Below are positions 57,551 through 64,000 of a stretch of 64,000 bases of DNA, piece by piece (the first letter of the stretch is position 1; every line of letters begins with the position of its first letter). The position numbers were made by a program, and so were the translations under genes. Under the pieces are notes generated by a model. That model was not told the origin of the DNA. It did not search any database and worked only from the letters and a program-made list of their open reading frames with translations. The stretch lies in the IMG/VR virus record IMGVR_UViG_3300016469_000277, positions 1 to 64,000 of that record. One strand, written 5' to 3'. This stretch comes from a virus.

Positions 57551-58562
57551 AATATTCTAGTCCTTTACGAGTCCAAACAATATCTCTGGTATTGTTCATG
57601 CAGATAATGTGAAGTTCTGCTTTTTCTCCTTCTAAGAAATTAAGAGTTCTTGCGATTCTTTGCGCTGCTTTAGAACTAGAAGCATAAGTATGAAGAATGA
57701 TTGCTTTGTTTAAGTTGGGAAAAGTCACACCTGCGTTTAACTGATTTACAGTAGCCAGAAAGTTAATTTCTCCTTCGTTGAACATTCTTAGATTCTCTTT
57801 ATTTACTTCGTCAGAGTTTTTAGAATGATACCCATAACGACAAATCTCTCCGCATTGTTGGATAGTTTCCACAAAAACTAAGCATCTGTTGAAAGTACTC
57901 AACAATTCTCTTAATTTATTCCACTTAGTTTGGCTTCCTGCAATACTTTGGATTAGTCTAAGCATCATGTGAAAATTCTCATCTGACTTAGATTCATAAA
58001 AGTTAATCTGAGCCTTTTCACTCCACATACCTCCAGACTTTCTAGGAATGTTTCTAATCTCTGAAGGATTAACCAAGTGTACGTAAATATGATAAGGTTT
58101 ATTTAAAATACCTGTGGTTTCGTCAATAGTTCTTTCGTATCTGACAGGAGTTAAGGTTTCGATAAAAAGCCTTTTTCTAGTACCCTTACGAGGAATAGTA
58201 CCTGTTAGACCGTTTAGAATCTTAGGACGATCTTGAGCAATAAATTGCCATTTAGCTTCAGATAGTTGGTCAATCTCATCAATGATAACAGCGTCATATT
58301 TTCTTAAATCTTGTTTGTCTAGACTAGCAAAAGTTGTAAAAGTGATATGGTCTACATTAAATCCGAACTTTTCTGCGTCAGATTTCCAAGCTTCTGCAAT
58401 AGATTTATTAGGATAAGCTACTAGTACCTCATCATAATAATCTGCTAGCTTCAATCCTACGACGGTTTTACCGCTACGCATAGGCATAACAGCTGTTCCG
58501 CTTCTTGCTTTTAAAGCCTCGAAAGCTTCTTCTTGGTATTCTGCTCTTACATCATTACTCAT
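57504..58562 (-). CDS. Superfamily 2 helicase
   Basis: MRSGKT, IIDEID, GLTGT, GVTFP, QRIAR; start MSNDV at 58562. Confidence 0.85.
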   Translation of the reverse strand: MSNDVRAEYQEEAFEALKARSGTAVMPMRSGKTVVGLKLADYYDEVLVAYPNKSIAEAWKSDAEKFGFNVDHITFTTFASLDKQDLRKYDAVIIDEIDQLSEAKWQFIAQDRPKILNGLTGTIPRKGTRKRLFIETLTPVRYERTIDETTGILNKPYHIYVHLVNPSEIRNIPRKSGGMWSEKAQINFYESKSDENFHMMLRLIQSIAGSQTKWNKLRELLSTFNRCLVFVETIQQCGEICRYGYHSKNSDEVNKENLRMFNEGEINFLATVNQLNAGVTFPNLNKAIILHTYASSSKAAQRIARTLNFLEGEKAELHIICMNNTRDIVWTRKGLEYYGKENITWIQPKPFS

Positions 58563-58803
58563 TGTTGTTAAATGTTTCGTTGTAGTATTGTTCTGCCGAT
58601 TTGTATTTTTGTTCCCAAGTTCCATCTGGTAGGTCAATACAATAATCTCCTTTGTCCCAAGCATCTTCAATCTCCTCCTTGTGCATTGCTTTGGCTTTTT
58701 CAAAAATTTCAACTTCTGTTTTAAATTCTGTTGAATTACCTGATACCATTGCATGTAAATTTTTGCGATAAAATTCTAAGCTACTTAACTTTTTATTTTC
58801 CAT
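58555..58803 (-). CDS. Small protein, family A
   Basis: SSLEF, AKAMHKEEIEDAW, EQYYNETF. Confidence 0.7.
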   Translation of the reverse strand: MENKKLSSLEFYRKNLHAMVSGNSTEFKTEVEIFEKAKAMHKEEIEDAWDKGDYCIDLPDGTWEQKYKSAEQYYNETFNNNE

Positions 58804-58808
58804 CTTGT

Positions 58809-59000
58809 TTATTCTTCAATTTCTATTAAACATTCGTTATAGCCTTTTTCGTAATATTCTTGGTTTTGATTTTCCTCTATTGCTTTGGCTTGTTTTTTTA
58901 CATTATTAAGATGTTCTAATTCTGACCAAGAAAGTTTACTACTAAAAGCAGTAAATACTTCATTGTAGAAAAATTCTACGCTACTTTGTTTGTCAGTCAT
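58809..59000 (-). CDS. Small protein, family A (divergent)
   Basis: KQSSVEF, KQAKAIE. Confidence 0.6.
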   Translation of the reverse strand: MTDKQSSVEFFYNEVFTAFSSKLSWSELEHLNNVKKQAKAIEENQNQEYYEKGYNECLIEIEE

Positions 59001-59575
59001 TTTGTTAAATGTTTGTACTTAGCTTGAATGTTAAGTTGAAAGCTCTTTTCTTCTTGAACAAATTCATCAAGTGTAAAGTACTTTTGATGAATTGGTTCAT
59101 TTCGACGAATCCAGCTTCTTTTTGTCCAAGAAAGACTTGTAATCTTATATAAACGAATTGTTTCTGAACTAGTCTCAATAGATACTGGAGCTGTGTTAAA
59201 AAGTACATAAAGTTGCCCATTGTTGCTTGAGTTATCTCCTTCAAAAAATAAAGATATTTCCGTATTGTTTGGGTTTTTTAAATAATACTCATCTTCAAAC
59301 ATTTTAGTAACACAATTTGTCCCGTATGTAAGATTCACTGGGTCAAATTCTTTGTTAAATTCGTCAATCTGTTTGTGGAATTTTTCTTTTAATTCTCTAG
59401 CCATAGCTTTATTAAAACTATAAATAGACTTTCTGAATGCTTCTATACTATCTATGTTTTGTTTAAGAGTAGCCATTGAAAATCTACCTGGAGTTTCAGC
59501 AGGAGGATTTAAACGAGTAAATTCTTTTTGTAAATCTAAGATTAGGTTATTTTGAAATTCTGTTAAGTTTGTCAT
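58997..59575 (-). CDS. Hypothetical protein
   Basis: Coupled ORF. Confidence 0.6.
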   Translation of the reverse strand: MTNLTEFQNNLILDLQKEFTRLNPPAETPGRFSMATLKQNIDSIEAFRKSIYSFNKAMARELKEKFHKQIDEFNKEFDPVNLTYGTNCVTKMFEDEYYLKNPNNTEISLFFEGDNSSNNGQLYVLFNTAPVSIETSSETIRLYKITSLSWTKRSWIRRNEPIHQKYFTLDEFVQEEKSFQLNIQAKYKHLTK

Positions 59576-59576
59576 T

Positions 59577-59810
59577 TTAAATAGATGATTTATTTGCGTT
59601 CATTTTTTGTTTAAAATAATTAAATACTTCAGGAATATGTTTTTTATAGTAAGGTTGATTATCTTTACACCAAGTTTTTAACTCTGAGTCTGTCTTAAAA
59701 GGCTTTATATGTGATCTATTTGACATAATCATGTTAAATATTGGTTCTAAGTCTTCAATAAAATCTTGAACAGTCCAGCCTTCCCAGATATGTTTGTCTA
59801 AGTTTGTCAT
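59577..59810 (-). CDS. Hypothetical protein flanked by 14-bp repeats
   Basis: ORF; TAAGTTTGTCATTT at 59564 and 59799. Confidence 0.6.
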   Translation of the reverse strand: MTNLDKHIWEGWTVQDFIEDLEPIFNMIMSNRSHIKPFKTDSELKTWCKDNQPYYKKHIPEVFNYFKQKMNANKSSI

Positions 59811-60037
59811 TTGTATTTTCTAATTAAGTTAAAAGTTTCTTTGAGATTTGTCATTTCTAATTCTCCGTTAAAAAAAGCAATAGTAAATCCATGGTTAGCT
59901 GTCCAATCTTCTTTCTTTACTCTTTTGCCGTTCACATGAGTTAAATAAATCCAAGGAAAGTTTCCCATTAAGTCTAAACGGATTCCTATTTTTTGTAATC
60001 TTTCGACTAATTTGTTTAAAGTATTTAAAGGTGACAT
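59807..60037 (-). CDS. Hypothetical phage protein
   Basis: GNFPWIYL..VNG motif; coupled ORF. Confidence 0.6.
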   Translation of the reverse strand: MSPLNTLNKLVERLQKIGIRLDLMGNFPWIYLTHVNGKRVKKEDWTANHGFTIAFFNGELEMTNLKETFNLIRKYK

Positions 60038-60483
60038 TAGTATTCTCTTTTAGGGGTAAATTTTTCTACATTTGTAATGTATTCATCAACAATAGAAGTA
60101 CGAGTTCCTGTATAGTATCTCTCGCCTATTTTAAAAGCTCTGTGTATCTCAGTTTTTCCTTCATAATTAACCTCTACCATATATTGATTGTCTGGATTAA
60201 ACCTAGAGTGAAATACTAAGGTATCGGCTTCTTTTTCTAAACTATTTGGATACAATGGATTTTTGTTTAACCACTCAAACAAATGAATTCTCTGTCCTTC
60301 TGTCATTTGATGCCAATACTTATCTGTTAGGTTGTGCCAAAACATAGTTCTTGCTATAGGTCGAGGAGGAATACAGGCTTCAGCTAAAAAAGCCAATTCA
60401 AAGAAATCTATTACAAATCTTGTTTCTTGTTTTGGATCAGAAGTTACTTGTTCTTGTTTTAGCTTTTTCATCTTTTGCAGCAT
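60037..60483 (-). CDS. Hypothetical phage protein
   Basis: Coupled ORF; CIPPRPIAR. Confidence 0.6.
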   Translation of the reverse strand: MLQKMKKLKQEQVTSDPKQETRFVIDFFELAFLAEACIPPRPIARTMFWHNLTDKYWHQMTEGQRIHLFEWLNKNPLYPNSLEKEADTLVFHSRFNPDNQYMVEVNYEGKTEIHRAFKIGERYYTGTRTSIVDEYITNVEKFTPKREY

Positions 60484-60613
60484 TCTTTAAATCGTTATAA
60501 AGTTGTTCTATTCTCTTGTACATTATTCTTAAATAAAAAAATCTAAGCTCTTTGTTTTGTTTGTAAGTTTTTCTTTTGCGGAACTTAGACTTTCTTTTTC
60601 TTTGAATTTTCAT
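60437..60613 (-). CDS. Small basic hypothetical protein
   Basis: ATGA overlap gives start MKIQRK at 60613. Confidence 0.4.
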   Translation of the reverse strand: MKIQRKRKSKFRKRKTYKQNKELRFFYLRIMYKRIEQLYNDLKNAAKDEKAKTRTSNF

Positions 60614-60825
60614 ATCTTTTCCAACTGCTTTTTTACTTCTTGCCAATATTTAAATTCCAAAGTATAATATGTATAATGTATTGCATATAAATCTAATATC
60701 TCATCCACTGCTATCAAAGCACATTGTTTGGCTGTTTTATGTTCTAATTGTCCTTCGTCAGTAAACGATGGTATTGAATAAAAAAATGCTTCGTATAACT
60801 CATCAGCTTTTTCTTTTGGTGTCAT
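60610..60825 (-). CDS. Small protein, family B (PKEKA.EL/AKQCALIAVD/EVK)
   Basis: Paralogous motifs. Confidence 0.7.
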   Translation of the reverse strand: MTPKEKADELYEAFFYSIPSFTDEGQLEHKTAKQCALIAVDEILDLYAIHYTYYTLEFKYWQEVKKQLEKI

Positions 60826-61025
60826 AACTTTTCTAATTCAATTTTAACTTCTAAATAATGATTATAAATATCGTCATGAGCAAAGAATGCTACTTTTAAA
60901 ATCTTGTCTACTGCGATTAAAGCACATTGTTTAGCAAAATATAAAGTTATTAGACTAGATGCGTCTGAATGTACTTTATACATTTCTTTTACTAGCTCCA
61001 CTGCTTCTTCTTTTGGGCTAATCAT
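60822..61025 (-). CDS. Small protein, family B
   Basis: Start MISPKEEA at 61025 (ATGA overlap). Confidence 0.7.
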   Translation of the reverse strand: MISPKEEAVELVKEMYKVHSDASSLITLYFAKQCALIAVDKILKVAFFAHDDIYNHYLEVKIELEKL

Positions 61026-61276
61026 TCTTCTTGGTTCTTTTGTATTTTGCTTTTTAGTTCTTCTGCGTAAAACTGTTCTACTAAAGTACAATAATTATCG
61101 TAGTCAAATTTAATTACATCTGAATCTATAAGTACCCCAAAATCAATTGCTTTTTCTACCAATTGGTGTTCTTTGGTTTTGGCCTGGTGAATTACTTCTT
61201 TAGGAATGGAGACTTTAATAAATCCCCATCCTTGTCCTTGTATTTCGTTTAAAAGCCAATCTACTGCTGATTCCAT
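61022..61276 (-). CDS. Small protein, family A (divergent)
   Basis: SAVDWL, QAK..E, EQFY.E. Confidence 0.65.
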   Translation of the reverse strand: MESAVDWLLNEIQGQGWGFIKVSIPKEVIHQAKTKEHQLVEKAIDFGVLIDSDVIKFDYDNYCTLVEQFYAEELKSKIQKNQEE

Positions 61277-61488
61277 TACATTCTTTTTATTAGTCCTTCG
61301 TCTATGTCAAAGTCTGAACCTAGTTTTTCGTTAACGCGATTAGCTGAAAATCCAGCAGCCAGCATAAGAGATTTAAACATCTCTACTATTTCTGTAGAAG
61401 TTAAATCTGAGTTAGGTTTTTCTATTGTGATTTTTTCTCCGTAATGTTCTAGAGTAAGTCTGAACGGAAATTCTAAATTATTCTTCAT
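61276..61488 (-). CDS. Hypothetical protein
   Basis: Coupled ORF. Confidence 0.55.
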   Translation of the reverse strand: MKNNLEFPFRLTLEHYGEKITIEKPNSDLTSTEIVEMFKSLMLAAGFSANRVNEKLGSDFDIDEGLIKRM

Positions 61489-61696
61489 ATTTGTCTATTT
61501 CGATTAATACTTGTTCCCAAAAGTCTCTACCTCTATCTGCTGTTGTAAAGTCTAAGACTTCATGAGCTAGTTTACGAGCAAAAGCTTGAGCAGTTGGAAG
61601 ATAAATTAAACTATAGTCTGATAGTTTAACTCTTGGGTGATTTAAAAAGAACTCTATTAGTTCTTTAGCTTTCTTTCTTGGGTTCAGTTGTTCCAT
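61478..61696 (-). CDS. Small protein, family B (divergent)
   Basis: PRKKAKEL, A..FA....EVL, FWEQV..EI. Confidence 0.6.
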   Translation of the reverse strand: MEQLNPRKKAKELIEFFLNHPRVKLSDYSLIYLPTAQAFARKLAHEVLDFTTADRGRDFWEQVLIEIDKYEE

Positions 61697-61877
61697 TTAC
61701 AATTTCATTTAATTGGTTAAGGATAGCTTGCTGTGTTTGCCCCCAATACATATCACACTTAGTTCCTTTTCTTGGAGATTCAACAAAATAAGATTGTAAA
61801 ATATCAGCAGGAGCTGTGAACCTGTAACAAGCTTCTTTCATAGGGCATTCTTGGTCTTTACATTTAGTTATGTCCAT
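61665..61877 (-). CDS. Small Cys-rich phage protein
   Basis: DITKC....CP.K..CYRF...QSYF...C..YW. Confidence 0.65.
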   Translation of the reverse strand: MDITKCKDQECPMKEACYRFTAPADILQSYFVESPRKGTKCDMYWGQTQQAILNQLNEIVNGTTEPKKES

Positions 61878-61885
61878 TTTAGTTT

Positions 61886-61917
61886 AAATTAAGTAAGGGA
61901 GCCGAAGCCCCCTTACT
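61886..61917 (-). terminator. Hairpin terminator with UUCG tetraloop
   Basis: - strand AGTAAGGGGGC-TTCG-GCTCCCTTACT then TAATTT. Confidence 0.7.
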
Positions 61918-61936
61918 AGTTACAAATTTACAAAAT

Positions 61937-62652
61937 TCAGTCAAATAATCTTTCAATATTATTTTCGGCTTCAAAATAAGATTCTGGTACAAAAAAGTAA
62001 GAACCACAGTGATCGCAAGATAATATATCTGTGCAATCGTCGTGTTTTACTATTGAGTCACTAAAACAACAAGGACAATAACCTAGTTCTAACTCTGCAA
62101 TAACTTCATCATCTGTTATTTCTTCGTATTCTAGAACATGACGATACTTGTAAGTTGGAATTTTAAGTTTAGGCTTTTTTTGTTCAAAAGAAGAATTCCA
62201 ATCGTCTACTTCGTAGTCCTCACTCCATCTTTCTCCATAATTAACTGTAGTAGGCTTAAGTGGATAATCAGAAGTAGCTTTGTGTTCCCACTTAGTCTTT
62301 CCTAGAGTAGTTAAACACTCGTAACCAAAATTAATAGAATTTTCCAAAGCTTGTATAGAGGTAATTTCTTGTTCGGAATGCTCGTCAAAATAACCGGCTG
62401 ATATGTTGCACCCAATGCAATTTACCCCAGGCAACTTAACAATCTCTCCAACATCAGTATAAACTCCATTGCTTTCAAAAAACTCATATTTTTCCATAAT
62501 AGGTTTAGCTGCGTCAACAAACTCCTTACTGCAAGTTTTTACACCATTAGTATGAGTTATTAACTCCAATCCTTTATATGCATTCCTATCCATTTGAAAT
62601 ATCATGGAACAGTCATGAAAAAAGGCTACATCAGCTTGTTTACTTCCCACAC
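61937..62652 (-). CDS. M28/M42-like Zn peptidase, exon 2 (C-terminal Zn ribbon)
   Basis: VGS, QMDR, G..TDV, NISAGYF..H...E; joins exon 1 to give EEIGCVGS. Confidence 0.85.
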
Positions 62653-63741
62653 CTTATTGTTACCATGTAAGCTCTTTATCTTACATTTCTGCACTTTCTT
62701 TTGTTATATGTGCAGTTCAGACTATATCATCACCATATAGGTGTTCCGCGCTCGTGGTGTTTTACCGTCCTTAACTTAATAGTAGGACTCCATACACTAG
62801 TCGTTGAACCTTCAATGCGTTTCTGCAAAGCTTGGCTGCTGATTGTCCTCTTCAGGATTTTCCAGCAATTCACGGAATTTTAATTGGTCATGTGGGTATT
62901 TTCTATCTAAATAACAAGTTGCGTCTTTATAAATATAATTTAAAAATAAATTTTTTTCTTCAGTAAATTGCCAAACAAAAACATTTCTTTTAGTGTATCG
63001 AATGTTTCCAAAAGGTTTTTTAAATTTATTTTTAAAATAATTTTTAAAGTCTTCTAAAATTGAAGAAGTTTTACTAGTAAAAAGAATATTATTTCCAGAA
63101 AAACATCCATCTCCGTCAAAATAACCTCTTATAAAATGTCTAATCAAGTTTTCTAGAATATTAGGAATTTTTAAATCCATATAGGTTTTTCTATTTCCTA
63201 ATCCAAGTTTTATCAAATGATCTACAAATTTTGTAGAACTAATTGATAAAGCATATTGATTTTTTCTCTTATACTTTTGATTATTCATAGGAGAGATAAA
63301 CTCTTTTCCTTCTCTAAAATGTAAAGGTCCTTTATGACCTAACTCTTTTTTAAAAAATTCAAGAATGTGTTTATCTTTTTCTGCTAAATTAATAGTAAAT
63401 GATTTTTCAATCCAAAAATCACTTCTTTTTCTAATGTAAATTCCTCCATCGGCAAACACAAATCCTAAAAAATATGCTTTAGCTTCTGTATCAATATTTT
63501 CAAAATAATCTTCATTATACTGATACTTTTTACTAAATTTTTTTAAAGGATATTCAAAATCATAGTGTTTAAAAAACTTTTTTAAGTATTTTGAACACTT
63601 ATTAAAATGTTTACCAGTTTTAGTTATTGACCCGTTACTTAAATAGTAGGTATAGTATTGTTGTACGTTTTCTAAAGATTCCATATTACAAATATAATAC
63701 AAAATTTAAAAAACCCAACACTCCTATACACATTTATTTTT
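62653..63741 (-). mobile_element. Group I self-splicing intron (IA-like), 1089 nt
   Basis: P AAUUGCUGGAAA (62870-59), Q AAUCAGCAG (62844-36), R GUUCAACGACUA (62809-798), S GAUAUAGUC (62728-20); P3 UUCCGUG/CGCGGAA; IGS at 62896-82 pairs with both exons; terminal G at 62653. Confidence 0.93.
62812..63684 (-). CDS. Intron-encoded double-motif LAGLIDADG homing endonuclease
   Basis: YFLGFVFADGG and FIRGYFDGDG; ATG at 63684 follows a TTG-N19-TATATTTG promoter (63718-63689). Confidence 0.9.
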   Translation of the reverse strand: MESLENVQQYYTYYLSNGSITKTGKHFNKCSKYLKKFFKHYDFEYPLKKFSKKYQYNEDYFENIDTEAKAYFLGFVFADGGIYIRKRSDFWIEKSFTINLAEKDKHILEFFKKELGHKGPLHFREGKEFISPMNNQKYKRKNQYALSISSTKFVDHLIKLGLGNRKTYMDLKIPNILENLIRHFIRGYFDGDGCFSGNNILFTSKTSSILEDFKNYFKNKFKKPFGNIRYTKRNVFVWQFTEEKNLFLNYIYKDATCYLDRKYPHDQLKFRELLENPEEDNQQPSFAETH

Positions 63742-64000
63742 AACCAATTTCTTCGTCTTTAAAAAATGCAATCTTAATCTCGTCGATAAGATCAAACATC
63801 ATCAAAGCAAAAAGACAACCATTCTTGTCATCAAAGCCTACACCGCATTGCAAACCTGTTTCGTTGTCTATACCGTAAACAAATTTGTCTGTTCTTTCTA
63901 TGCGGAGTTCTTTTTTGAAATCTTGGTTAATGTCGGTATGCGCTATAACACAAGGATACAAATCAGTATCTCCTTTGACTGCATAGAGATTTCCAAATTT
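63742..64000 (-). CDS. M28/M42-like Zn peptidase, exon 1 (continues beyond window end)
   Basis: Frame open to 64000: GNLYAVKG, AHTD, G.DDK.G, EEIG. Confidence 0.85.

Follow-up and report, generated by a model that had tools for sequence, protein, structure and literature searches.

We define "the window" as the whole stretch of DNA that was analysed, namely the first 64,000 nucleotides (64 kb) of the 108,307-base viral record IMGVR_UViG_3300016469_000277 from IMG/VR, whose CheckV completeness is 94%. Near the end of the window a phage peptidase gene is divided by a 1089-nt insert (62653..63741), which very probably is a mobile group IA intron, from a lineage that has no P2 and is akin to the T4 nrdB intron. 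It sits in the conserved motif DEEIG-x-VGS, carries in the loop of its first helix (L1) a LAGLIDADG homing-endonuclease gene with a passive tail and, by all appearances, its own promoter, and would spread by homing. The features of this locus all lie on the minus strand, and the intron ends were placed from P1/P10 pairing and alignment with homologues.

The 3' part of exon 1 (63742..64000; phrog_4191) ends with ...FFKDEEIG and the first base of a junction codon. The start of the host open reading frame (ORF) lies outside the window, at about 64279, and the exon 1 piece corresponds to ORF L001 2641-3180(-). After FFKDEEIG the frame is closed by TAA at 63742-63740, an in-frame UAA that spans the 5' splice site (GGU U|AA AAA; 63740..63742). 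In-frame stops at the start of the intron are a known feature of bacterial and phage introns and halt ribosomes at the intron boundary (PMC3984707). The coding sequence resumes in another frame at 62650 as (V)GSKQADVAFF..., and exon 2 (61937..62652) supplies at its start the GU that completes the junction codon UGU (Cys), after which the reading is VGSKQA.... The predicted splice sites fall after U63742 on the 5' side and after G62653 on the 3' side. Joining U63742 to G62652 gives the ligated junction ATTGGTT|GTGTGGG, or ATTGGTT|GTGTGGGA, in which GGT T|GT GTG is read in frame as ...FFKDEEIG-C-VGSKQA..., and the complete protein is colinear with its homologue P0002. An intein was considered and rejected: the insert is out of frame, opens with a stop codon and contains a ribozyme.

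Intronless alleles of the gene support these boundaries. More than 15 intronless homologues read EEIGAVGS without a gap, and the full-length relatives, which are 387-406 amino acids long, read FFKDEEIG-A-VGSKQA. Nine contigs, five from IMG/VR and four from metagenomes, have the halves of the gene exactly one codon apart in their DNA; the intronless alleles include contigs L010-L013, L003 and L005-L007. Exon 1 is 98-100% identical in DNA to the allele on L010, the metagenome contig that encodes P0002. The junction codon is Cys in the window and Ala in every close intronless relative (conserved DEEIGAVGS); no Ala codon is possible at the junction, because the 5' splice site needs a U.

The insert contains a complete group I core. 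The Rfam model RF00028 (Intron_gpI; curated cut-off 50 bits) scored 57.8 bits on 62701-62910 when the 3' 281 nt were searched alone, and 65.7 bits on 62708-62957 in a search of the whole record. A scan of 6 kb (58000-64000, default filters, E <= 1) missed the intron and returned a chance miRNA as its sole match, because the long P1 insertion, with its 845-nt L1, breaks the model; the lesson for method is that large L1 insertions defeat the default filters of profile scans. Over the 108-kb record RF00028 found no second group I intron. The motif GATATAGTC has two other sites in the record (18616 and 39586), and a reversed-pattern control matched about equally often.

The helices of the core were assigned individually. 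P3 (62877-62871 with 62750-62744) encloses P4-P6, the 5' strand of P7 and a P7.1-type hairpin (62744..62877 in all); within it stand P4 (62867-62862 with 62842-62837), P5 (62857-62854 with 62849-62846) and P6 (62836-62834 with 62810-62808), and each pair of the mapped core helices was checked by script. P7 (GACUA/UAGUC; 62802-62798 with 62724-62720), which was checked by eye and by script, lies within the R (GGUUCAACGACUAG) and S (GAUGAUAUAGUCUGAAC) elements. The 41 nt between P7 and P3' form a P7.1-type compound hairpin (62797-62757) in the place where subgroup IA has P7.1/P7.2. The 3' part of the core (62653..62743) holds P8 (62743-62740 with 62734-62731), P9 (62715-62710 with 62694-62689) and P9.1 (62686-62680 with 62671-62665), and closes with the terminal G, 62653, which is the last base of the intron.

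The minimum free energy (MFE) fold of the 244-nt core alone recovered P3, P4, P5, P6, P7.1, P8, P9 and P9.1. RNAalifold, applied to five homologous cores from different phages, gave the same helices, with double-sided compensatory changes in 18 of the 46 pairs, including five of the seven pairs of P3. Identity over P3-P5 is about 80% to T4-type nrdB introns and 72-75% to the DNA-polymerase introns of Bacillus Wphvirus phages. The hairpin at the P7.1/P7.2 position and the 80% nrdB identity would suit an IA2-like subgroup, but P2 is absent.

The internal guide sequence (62882..62896) consists of P10' CCCACAU (62896-62890) and P1' GACCAAUU (62889-62882), and pairs at all 15 positions with the ligated junction AAUUGGUU|GUGUGGG. 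P1' pairs 8/8 with the end of exon 1, AAUUGGUU (63749-63742), ending in the wobble U63742-G62889, and CCCACAU pairs 7/7 with the start of exon 2, GUGUGGG (62652-62646). Thirteen pairs are Watson-Crick and two are G-U, one being the splice-site wobble and the other falling in P10. The guide starts 845 nt past the 5' splice site and 4 nt before P3, and holds the sole RRCCAAT on the minus strand of the intron. No better match to the junction exists in the intron, and it was reached by none of 3000 shuffles, none of which had 13 or more Watson-Crick pairs.

The position of the guide relative to P3 is the same in three homologous introns of other genes, each of which is complementary to its own exons. 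The pairings are AGACUGU| with GCAGUCU and P10 GGUUA with UAACU in the dUTPase gene of the crAss-like phage cr50_1; CUGGUCCU| with GGGACCAG and P10 AACCUG with CAGGUU in the Bacillus phage OmnioDeoPrimus DNA polymerase gene; and GAAGGAU| with GUCCUUC in Flavobacterium phage Fpv2. This agreement in position settles the question of the guide. The OmnioDeoPrimus intron is ORF-less: after its 5' splice site come AAA, an L1 of 3 nt, and immediately P10'/P1', and P2 is absent. In the window intron, the ORF is placed in L1 because the 845 nt fill the point at which the ORF-less Bacillus intron has AAA; there is no other candidate for the guide. The alternative of a P1 local to the 5' splice site was rejected, the intron containing no other complement to the exon end.

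Much of this layout had been proposed by an initial annotation made from the sequence alone, and it was borne out at each of these points. It had put a group I intron at 62653-63741, and the elements it listed were all found at their coordinates; the search with group I models that it named as a check gave, with the Rfam model, 57.8-65.7 bits against a cut-off of 50. The complementarity of 62896-62882 to the ligated junction, with its U-G wobble and 7-bp P10, is exact, and the distance of about 845 nt that placed the endonuclease gene in L1 was confirmed as 845 nt. The ORF does run through guide and core to a stop at 62812, and the spliced frame EEIG-C-VGS, for which the annotation had looked to intronless homologues reading EEIGxVGS, is matched by their EEIGAVGS.

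The ORF in L1 (62812..63684; ATG at 63684, UGA at 62814-62812) encodes a predicted homing endonuclease of 290 amino acids, with an N-terminal helical domain followed by two LAGLIDADG motifs (FLGFVFADGG and FIRGYFDGDGC). It matches Pfam LAGLIDADG_3 at 38.8 bits (cut-off 22.5), and PHROG 4645 (phrog_4645), 'endonuclease', over residues 6-263. An AlphaFold2 model built from 24 sequences, with a predicted local distance difference test (pLDDT) score of 88.4, has the alpha-beta-beta-alpha-beta-beta-alpha double-domain fold, and Foldseek gave a probability of 1.0 for matches to the bI3 maturase, I-AniI, I-DmoI, I-OnuI and I-SceI. A sequence-only PDB search with the endonuclease gave no match. The acidic residues that end both motif helices, D79 and D190/D192, are invariant among the 24 sequences.

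The last 27 codons of the ORF (PHDQLKFRELLENPEEDNQQPSFAETH; 62815..62895) overlap P10', P1', the 5' strand of P3, P4, P5 and most of P6. Endonuclease homology ends at residue 263 in every comparison, and the last base of codon 263, 62896, is also where the guide begins; tail residues 266-290 have pLDDT values below 50. Among the best 120 relatives of the LAGLIDADG protein, 19, with identities reaching down to 32%, have the ending ...ELLE(N/T)PEEDNQQPS..., a translation of the P4-P6 nucleotides, which are invariant. The stop codon falls before P3 in P0035 and P0037, in P6 in the window, after P7 in P0076 and far beyond in P0042 and P0043. In five relatives the frame stays open across J6/7-P7 (EGSTTN), in some of them much further. 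The tail looks like a passive, disordered read-through extension that lies outside the predicted fold and forms no functional part of the enzyme. Such extension is known as "core creep", a published model (Edgell, Chalamcharla and Belfort 2011; PMC3073962) that predicts variable stop positions among relatives, and the variation described above supports it.

When the LAGLIDADG protein was used as a tblastn query, six viral contigs matched only its last 17-24 residues (L014:1209-1280, L015:489-560 and L016-L019:2001-2051). These matches are spurious, because they are the translated P4-P6 of related ribozymes standing behind unrelated HNH or GIY-YIG genes. The peptide ELLENPEEDNQQPS, imposed by the RNA, creates false protein homology among unrelated nucleases and is a hazard for annotation.

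A promoter-like element (63689..63718), found by pattern scan, precedes the endonuclease gene: TTG (63718-63716), N19 and the Bacteroidota-type box TATATTTG (63696-63689), which stands 4 nt before the ATG. The full TTG-N19/20-TAnnTTTG arrangement followed by an ORF occurs at ten other sites in the window, or 11 in total, among them 29284(+), 44141(-) and 53963(-) besides 63696(-). Four sites in the window scan have no more than 4-5 nt between box and ATG. The same arrangement precedes the intron ORFs of contigs L004, L014 and L019. The boxes close to the ATG suggest that the window phage makes leaderless mRNAs from promoters of Bacteroidota type, and the pattern makes it most likely that the endonuclease gene has a promoter of its own, 4 nt before its ATG.

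The flanks of the intron carry a trace of its movement. We compared the spliced window gene with the intronless allele L010 and found DNA divergence of 1.0% at -459..-41, 9.8% at -40..0, 32.6% at +1..+270 and 5.3% at +271..+722. The divergent patch marks a probable co-conversion tract (62396..63764), which takes in the intron and, on its flanks, about 22 nt from exon 1 and about 257 nt from exon 2. P0013, an exon-2-only ORF whose backbone is only 43% identical in the C-terminal half, has the same patch: over residues 1-90 it is 81% identical to the window protein, which exceeds the identity of either allele to its own backbone relative there. A sharp divergent patch at the insertion site indicates homing with co-conversion from a diverged donor, and the acquisition is judged recent because the boundary of the tract is sharp. 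A tract bounded in this way is direct sequence evidence of recent intron movement between related phages. The candidate target of the endonuclease in L010 is GAGGAAATTGGTG|CCGTAGGTTCT, also given as GAAATTGGTG|CCGTAGG.

The host gene matches PHROG 4191, 'peptidase', with E = 1.4e-38. Profiles of MH-clan metallopeptidases scored below their cut-offs (M42 13.7, M20 13.0 and M28 12.2 bits), a sequence-only PDB search with the peptidase gave no match, and by our own reading of the sequence the protein has the MH-clan-like motifs HxD, DDK.G and DEE.G. The C terminus of the peptidase-like protein (61937-62100) carries a zinc-ribbon-like CPCC...C..CG module with sub-threshold matches to Pfam Lar_restr_allev and Zn_ribbon_LysW. 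Among named phages, the nearest relatives of the gene belong to Cellulophaga phages; together with the promoter-like boxes, this suggests a phage of Bacteroidota, probably of Flavobacteriia. For annotation, the locus is one peptidase gene of the 393-amino-acid type instead of two fragments and a stray 'endonuclease'.

One peptidase relative, L004:1655-2911 (IMGVR_UViG_3300034061_001913), is without the window intron and has another insertion, of 1255 nt, about 30 codons upstream (GVGFD|DKNGC). That insertion contains a 343-amino-acid LAGLIDADG ORF preceded by TTG-N20-TATTTTTG-N4-ATG, and its 3' 130 nt include an S-like GAUAAUGUAUGCUGAAC; over 1.4 kb it gave no Rfam group I match.

From this anatomy a course of splicing and mobility can be proposed. 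In the precursor, P1 would arise when the last 8 nt of exon 1 pair with GACCAAUU, which lies 845 nt further downstream, the U-G wobble marking the cleavage site; next to it, CCCACAU would make P10 with the opening 7 nt of exon 2. Two guanosine-dependent transesterifications would then be performed by the compact core (P3 to P9.1, 244 nt) and leave an uninterrupted peptidase mRNA that reads EEIG-C-VGS. The gene for a monomeric, double-motif LAGLIDADG enzyme occupies L1 and, having no stop before the guide, runs for 27 codons through guide, P3, P4, P5 and P6. Translation of this ORF and folding of the ribozyme could compete on the same molecule, and, in agreement with a suggestion of the initial annotation, we infer that the internal promoter relieves the competition: its near-leaderless mRNA would start past the 5' splice site, and ribosomes that cross the core on that RNA would not disturb splicing of the full-length precursor. 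The endonuclease would cut intronless alleles at the GAAATTGGTG|CCGTAGG target, and repair would copy the intron together with flanking exon sequence.

Several observations weigh against this reading. When G-U pairing is left free, 60 of 5000 shuffles (1.2%) reach 15/15 somewhere in the intron; the guide match alone is therefore not overwhelming, and its position and Watson-Crick content matter. P1, which has to form across 845 nt, is missing from the MFE fold of the whole precursor, and a search for a helper stem that might close L1 found none (duplex energy -15.0, mean of the shuffles -14.9). By itself the TANNTTTG motif shows only weak enrichment across the window (107 vs 87 +/- 10); the promoter argument uses the full TTG-N19/20-TAnnTTTG-N4/5-ATG arrangement, not this motif alone. 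Finally, the change of the conserved Ala to Cys at the junction codon may have an effect on the peptidase.

The missing P1 and the missing stem would fit splicing that depends on protein, a LAGLIDADG maturase or a host RNA chaperone being needed for efficient splicing across the 845-nt P1 loop and translation of the ORF being coupled to splicing. The maturases bI3 and I-AniI are among the top structural matches of the endonuclease, and in Thermotoga a LAGLIDADG protein of a bacterial intron is known to act as a maturase (PMC3984707). The Foldseek matches, however, have 15-20% identity and reflect the common LAGLIDADG fold, not surfaces peculiar to maturases; no LAGLIDADG maturase serves the relatives whose HNH or GIY-YIG gene stands in this place, nor the nuclear introns that have insertions in P1; and the core folds well by itself. 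Protein-dependent splicing is unlikely on this evidence.

It is more doubtful still that the overlap is functional, that is, that the 27-residue tail is selected, for instance for DNA or RNA binding or for autoregulation, and that the sequence is under dual constraint. Retention of ELLENPEEDNQQPS in relatives down to 32% identity, and the reading of the core in the same frame by HNH and GIY-YIG ORFs, would be expected of a selected peptide. But conservation tracks the RNA, the P4-P6 nucleotides being invariant in the DNA alignment, and the frame is shared among nuclease families about as one would predict, because only one of the three frames has a stop through P4-P6, so that frame sharing is expected about half the time. 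The close relatives P0035 and P0037 lack the tail, stop positions extend from ahead of P3 to past P9, and the tail has pLDDT values under 50. A passive tail remains the preferred reading.

The Cys at the junction, where the family consensus is Ala, could also be taken to mean that the insert is a decaying relic which no longer splices and has inactivated the peptidase gene. This is very improbable: the core is intact with all its helices paired, the endonuclease ORF is intact with its catalytic Asp residues invariant, the two exons are likewise intact and in frame, with 95-100% identity to the intronless allele beyond the tract, and the sharp co-conversion boundary implies recent acquisition. 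That the guide match is fortuitous, with the ORF in a loop of P2 type and the true P1 close to the 5' splice site, can be given next to no credence, since the free-G-U shuffles that favour it are answered by the lack of any other exon-end complement, by the absence of shuffles with 13 or more Watson-Crick pairs, and by the use of this exact position in homologous introns, including an ORF-less one without P2.

The mobile, P2-less IA intron of the window has relatives that differ in their endonuclease genes. In cr50_1 and in the IMG/VR contigs L016-L018 the space from the 5' splice site in the dUTPase gene to the guide is taken up by an HNH gene, which enters the core in the same frame as the window ORF; the GIY-YIG genes of L014 and L019 also read into the core in that frame. 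L014 has only one candidate 5' splice site, so that placement of its gene in L1 is provisional, and the 5' splice site of L019 cannot be placed with confidence. In Fpv2 the nuclease gene comes after P9 rather than in L1. Judged from these sequences, one ribozyme lineage has repeatedly been colonised by endonuclease genes, and L1 is a favoured site.

A close parallel is the cr50_1 dUTPase intron (MT774375), with L016-L018. The ribozymes are homologous (74% identity) and the layout is shared: 5' splice site, endonuclease gene in L1, P10'/P1' directly before P3, and no P2. The cr50_1 intron differs in its HNH nuclease, in its host gene and in an ORF that runs further, beyond P7.1; its deposited annotation is silent on the layout. 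A further case is an apparent, unannotated group I intron in Fpv2 (KU599878; L008:2370-3289), where a short unannotated exon (MSDTKIRTICVD...KWKD) ends at GAAGGAU|. The Fpv2 core is 88% identical to that of the window in the aligned pieces, and a NUMOD nuclease ORF, annotated as 'hypothetical protein', follows P9.

The phage group IA2 introns of the T4 nrdB/td type and the DNA-polymerase introns of Bastillevirinae share with the window intron a similar core, a P7.1-type insertion between P7 and P3', the interruption of a conserved motif in a phage enzyme gene and an in-frame stop at the start of the intron. The window intron differs from the T4 and SPO1 introns in having its ORF in L1, no P2 and a LAGLIDADG nuclease. 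In the SPO1 intron, the ORF sits in P8. The characterised T4 introns have their ORFs in P6a or P9.1 (I-TevI in the P6 loop) (PMC3073962). LAGLIDADG-bearing introns have been reported in crAss-like phages (PMC7886860) and in Bastillevirinae, where ten introns have a ribozyme signature on just a single side of the loop (PMC11878797).

The initial annotation had implied that the arrangement is unusual, and in this it overstated the case. Endonuclease genes located in P1, and overlaps of ORF and core, are tabulated by Edgell et al. 2011 (PMC3073962, Table 1), with the tRNA-fMet intron of Synechocystis (I-Ssp6803I; 61-nt overlap of the ORF with P1/P2) and the large-subunit (LSU) intron of Physarum (I-PpoI). 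P1-located genes also occur in nuclear rDNA introns of myxomycetes (S1389; PMC8395846), and a double-motif LAGLIDADG gene lies in the P1 loop of a fungal mitochondrial intron of subgroup IA1, Hypomyces cox3-i2 (PMC4964425). Overlap of an ORF with the core is shown in a figure panel of a review of bacterial group I introns (PMC3984707), and the layout of the window recurs in the deposited cr50_1 intron and in many metagenomic relatives. The Synechocystis, Physarum, myxomycete and Hypomyces introns differ in lying in cellular tRNA, rRNA or mitochondrial genes and in belonging to other intron subgroups, whereas the window intron interrupts a protein-coding gene of a phage and has an 85-nt overlap from the guide through P6. 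Of the related claim that this RNA is both code and ribozyme, the overlap of ORF and core stands, but the 27 codons look like a passive tail, not like sequence with two functions. The likeness to core creep is close: the ORF is extended into the core up to the next stop, its length varies among relatives and the extension is dispensable for the fold.

Translational control of I-TevI in the td intron, reportedly described by Gibb and Edgell in 2010, has in common with the arrangement proposed here that ribosomes need to be kept out of the core of the splicing precursor. The means would differ: a sequestered ribosome-binding site in td, and in the window a promoter giving a near-leaderless mRNA.

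A broader scheme for phages of Bacteroidota can be put forward as a speculation that is more doubtful than not. In it, L1 of the P2-less IA lineage may be a general docking site that receives genes of at least two, and perhaps all three, endonuclease families (LAGLIDADG and HNH genes being placed there, GIY-YIG genes provisionally), each gene bringing a promoter 4 nt upstream of the ATG. Only a leaderless transcript incapable of splicing would give rise to the nuclease, the AUG within the precursor would be largely silent, and the LAGLIDADG protein might help to close the 845-nt loop of P1. If true, coding and catalysis would be partitioned at the level of the transcript, a solution distinct from the sequestration of the ribosome-binding site of I-TevI.

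The intron of the window is another case in known categories: in it, core creep and an endonuclease gene located in P1 come together in a mobile IA intron, and the current understanding of group I introns is unchanged by it. Its relatives provide a clean natural series for the study of core creep, in which the same ribozyme occurs ORF-less or with three nuclease families and with stop codons at many positions.

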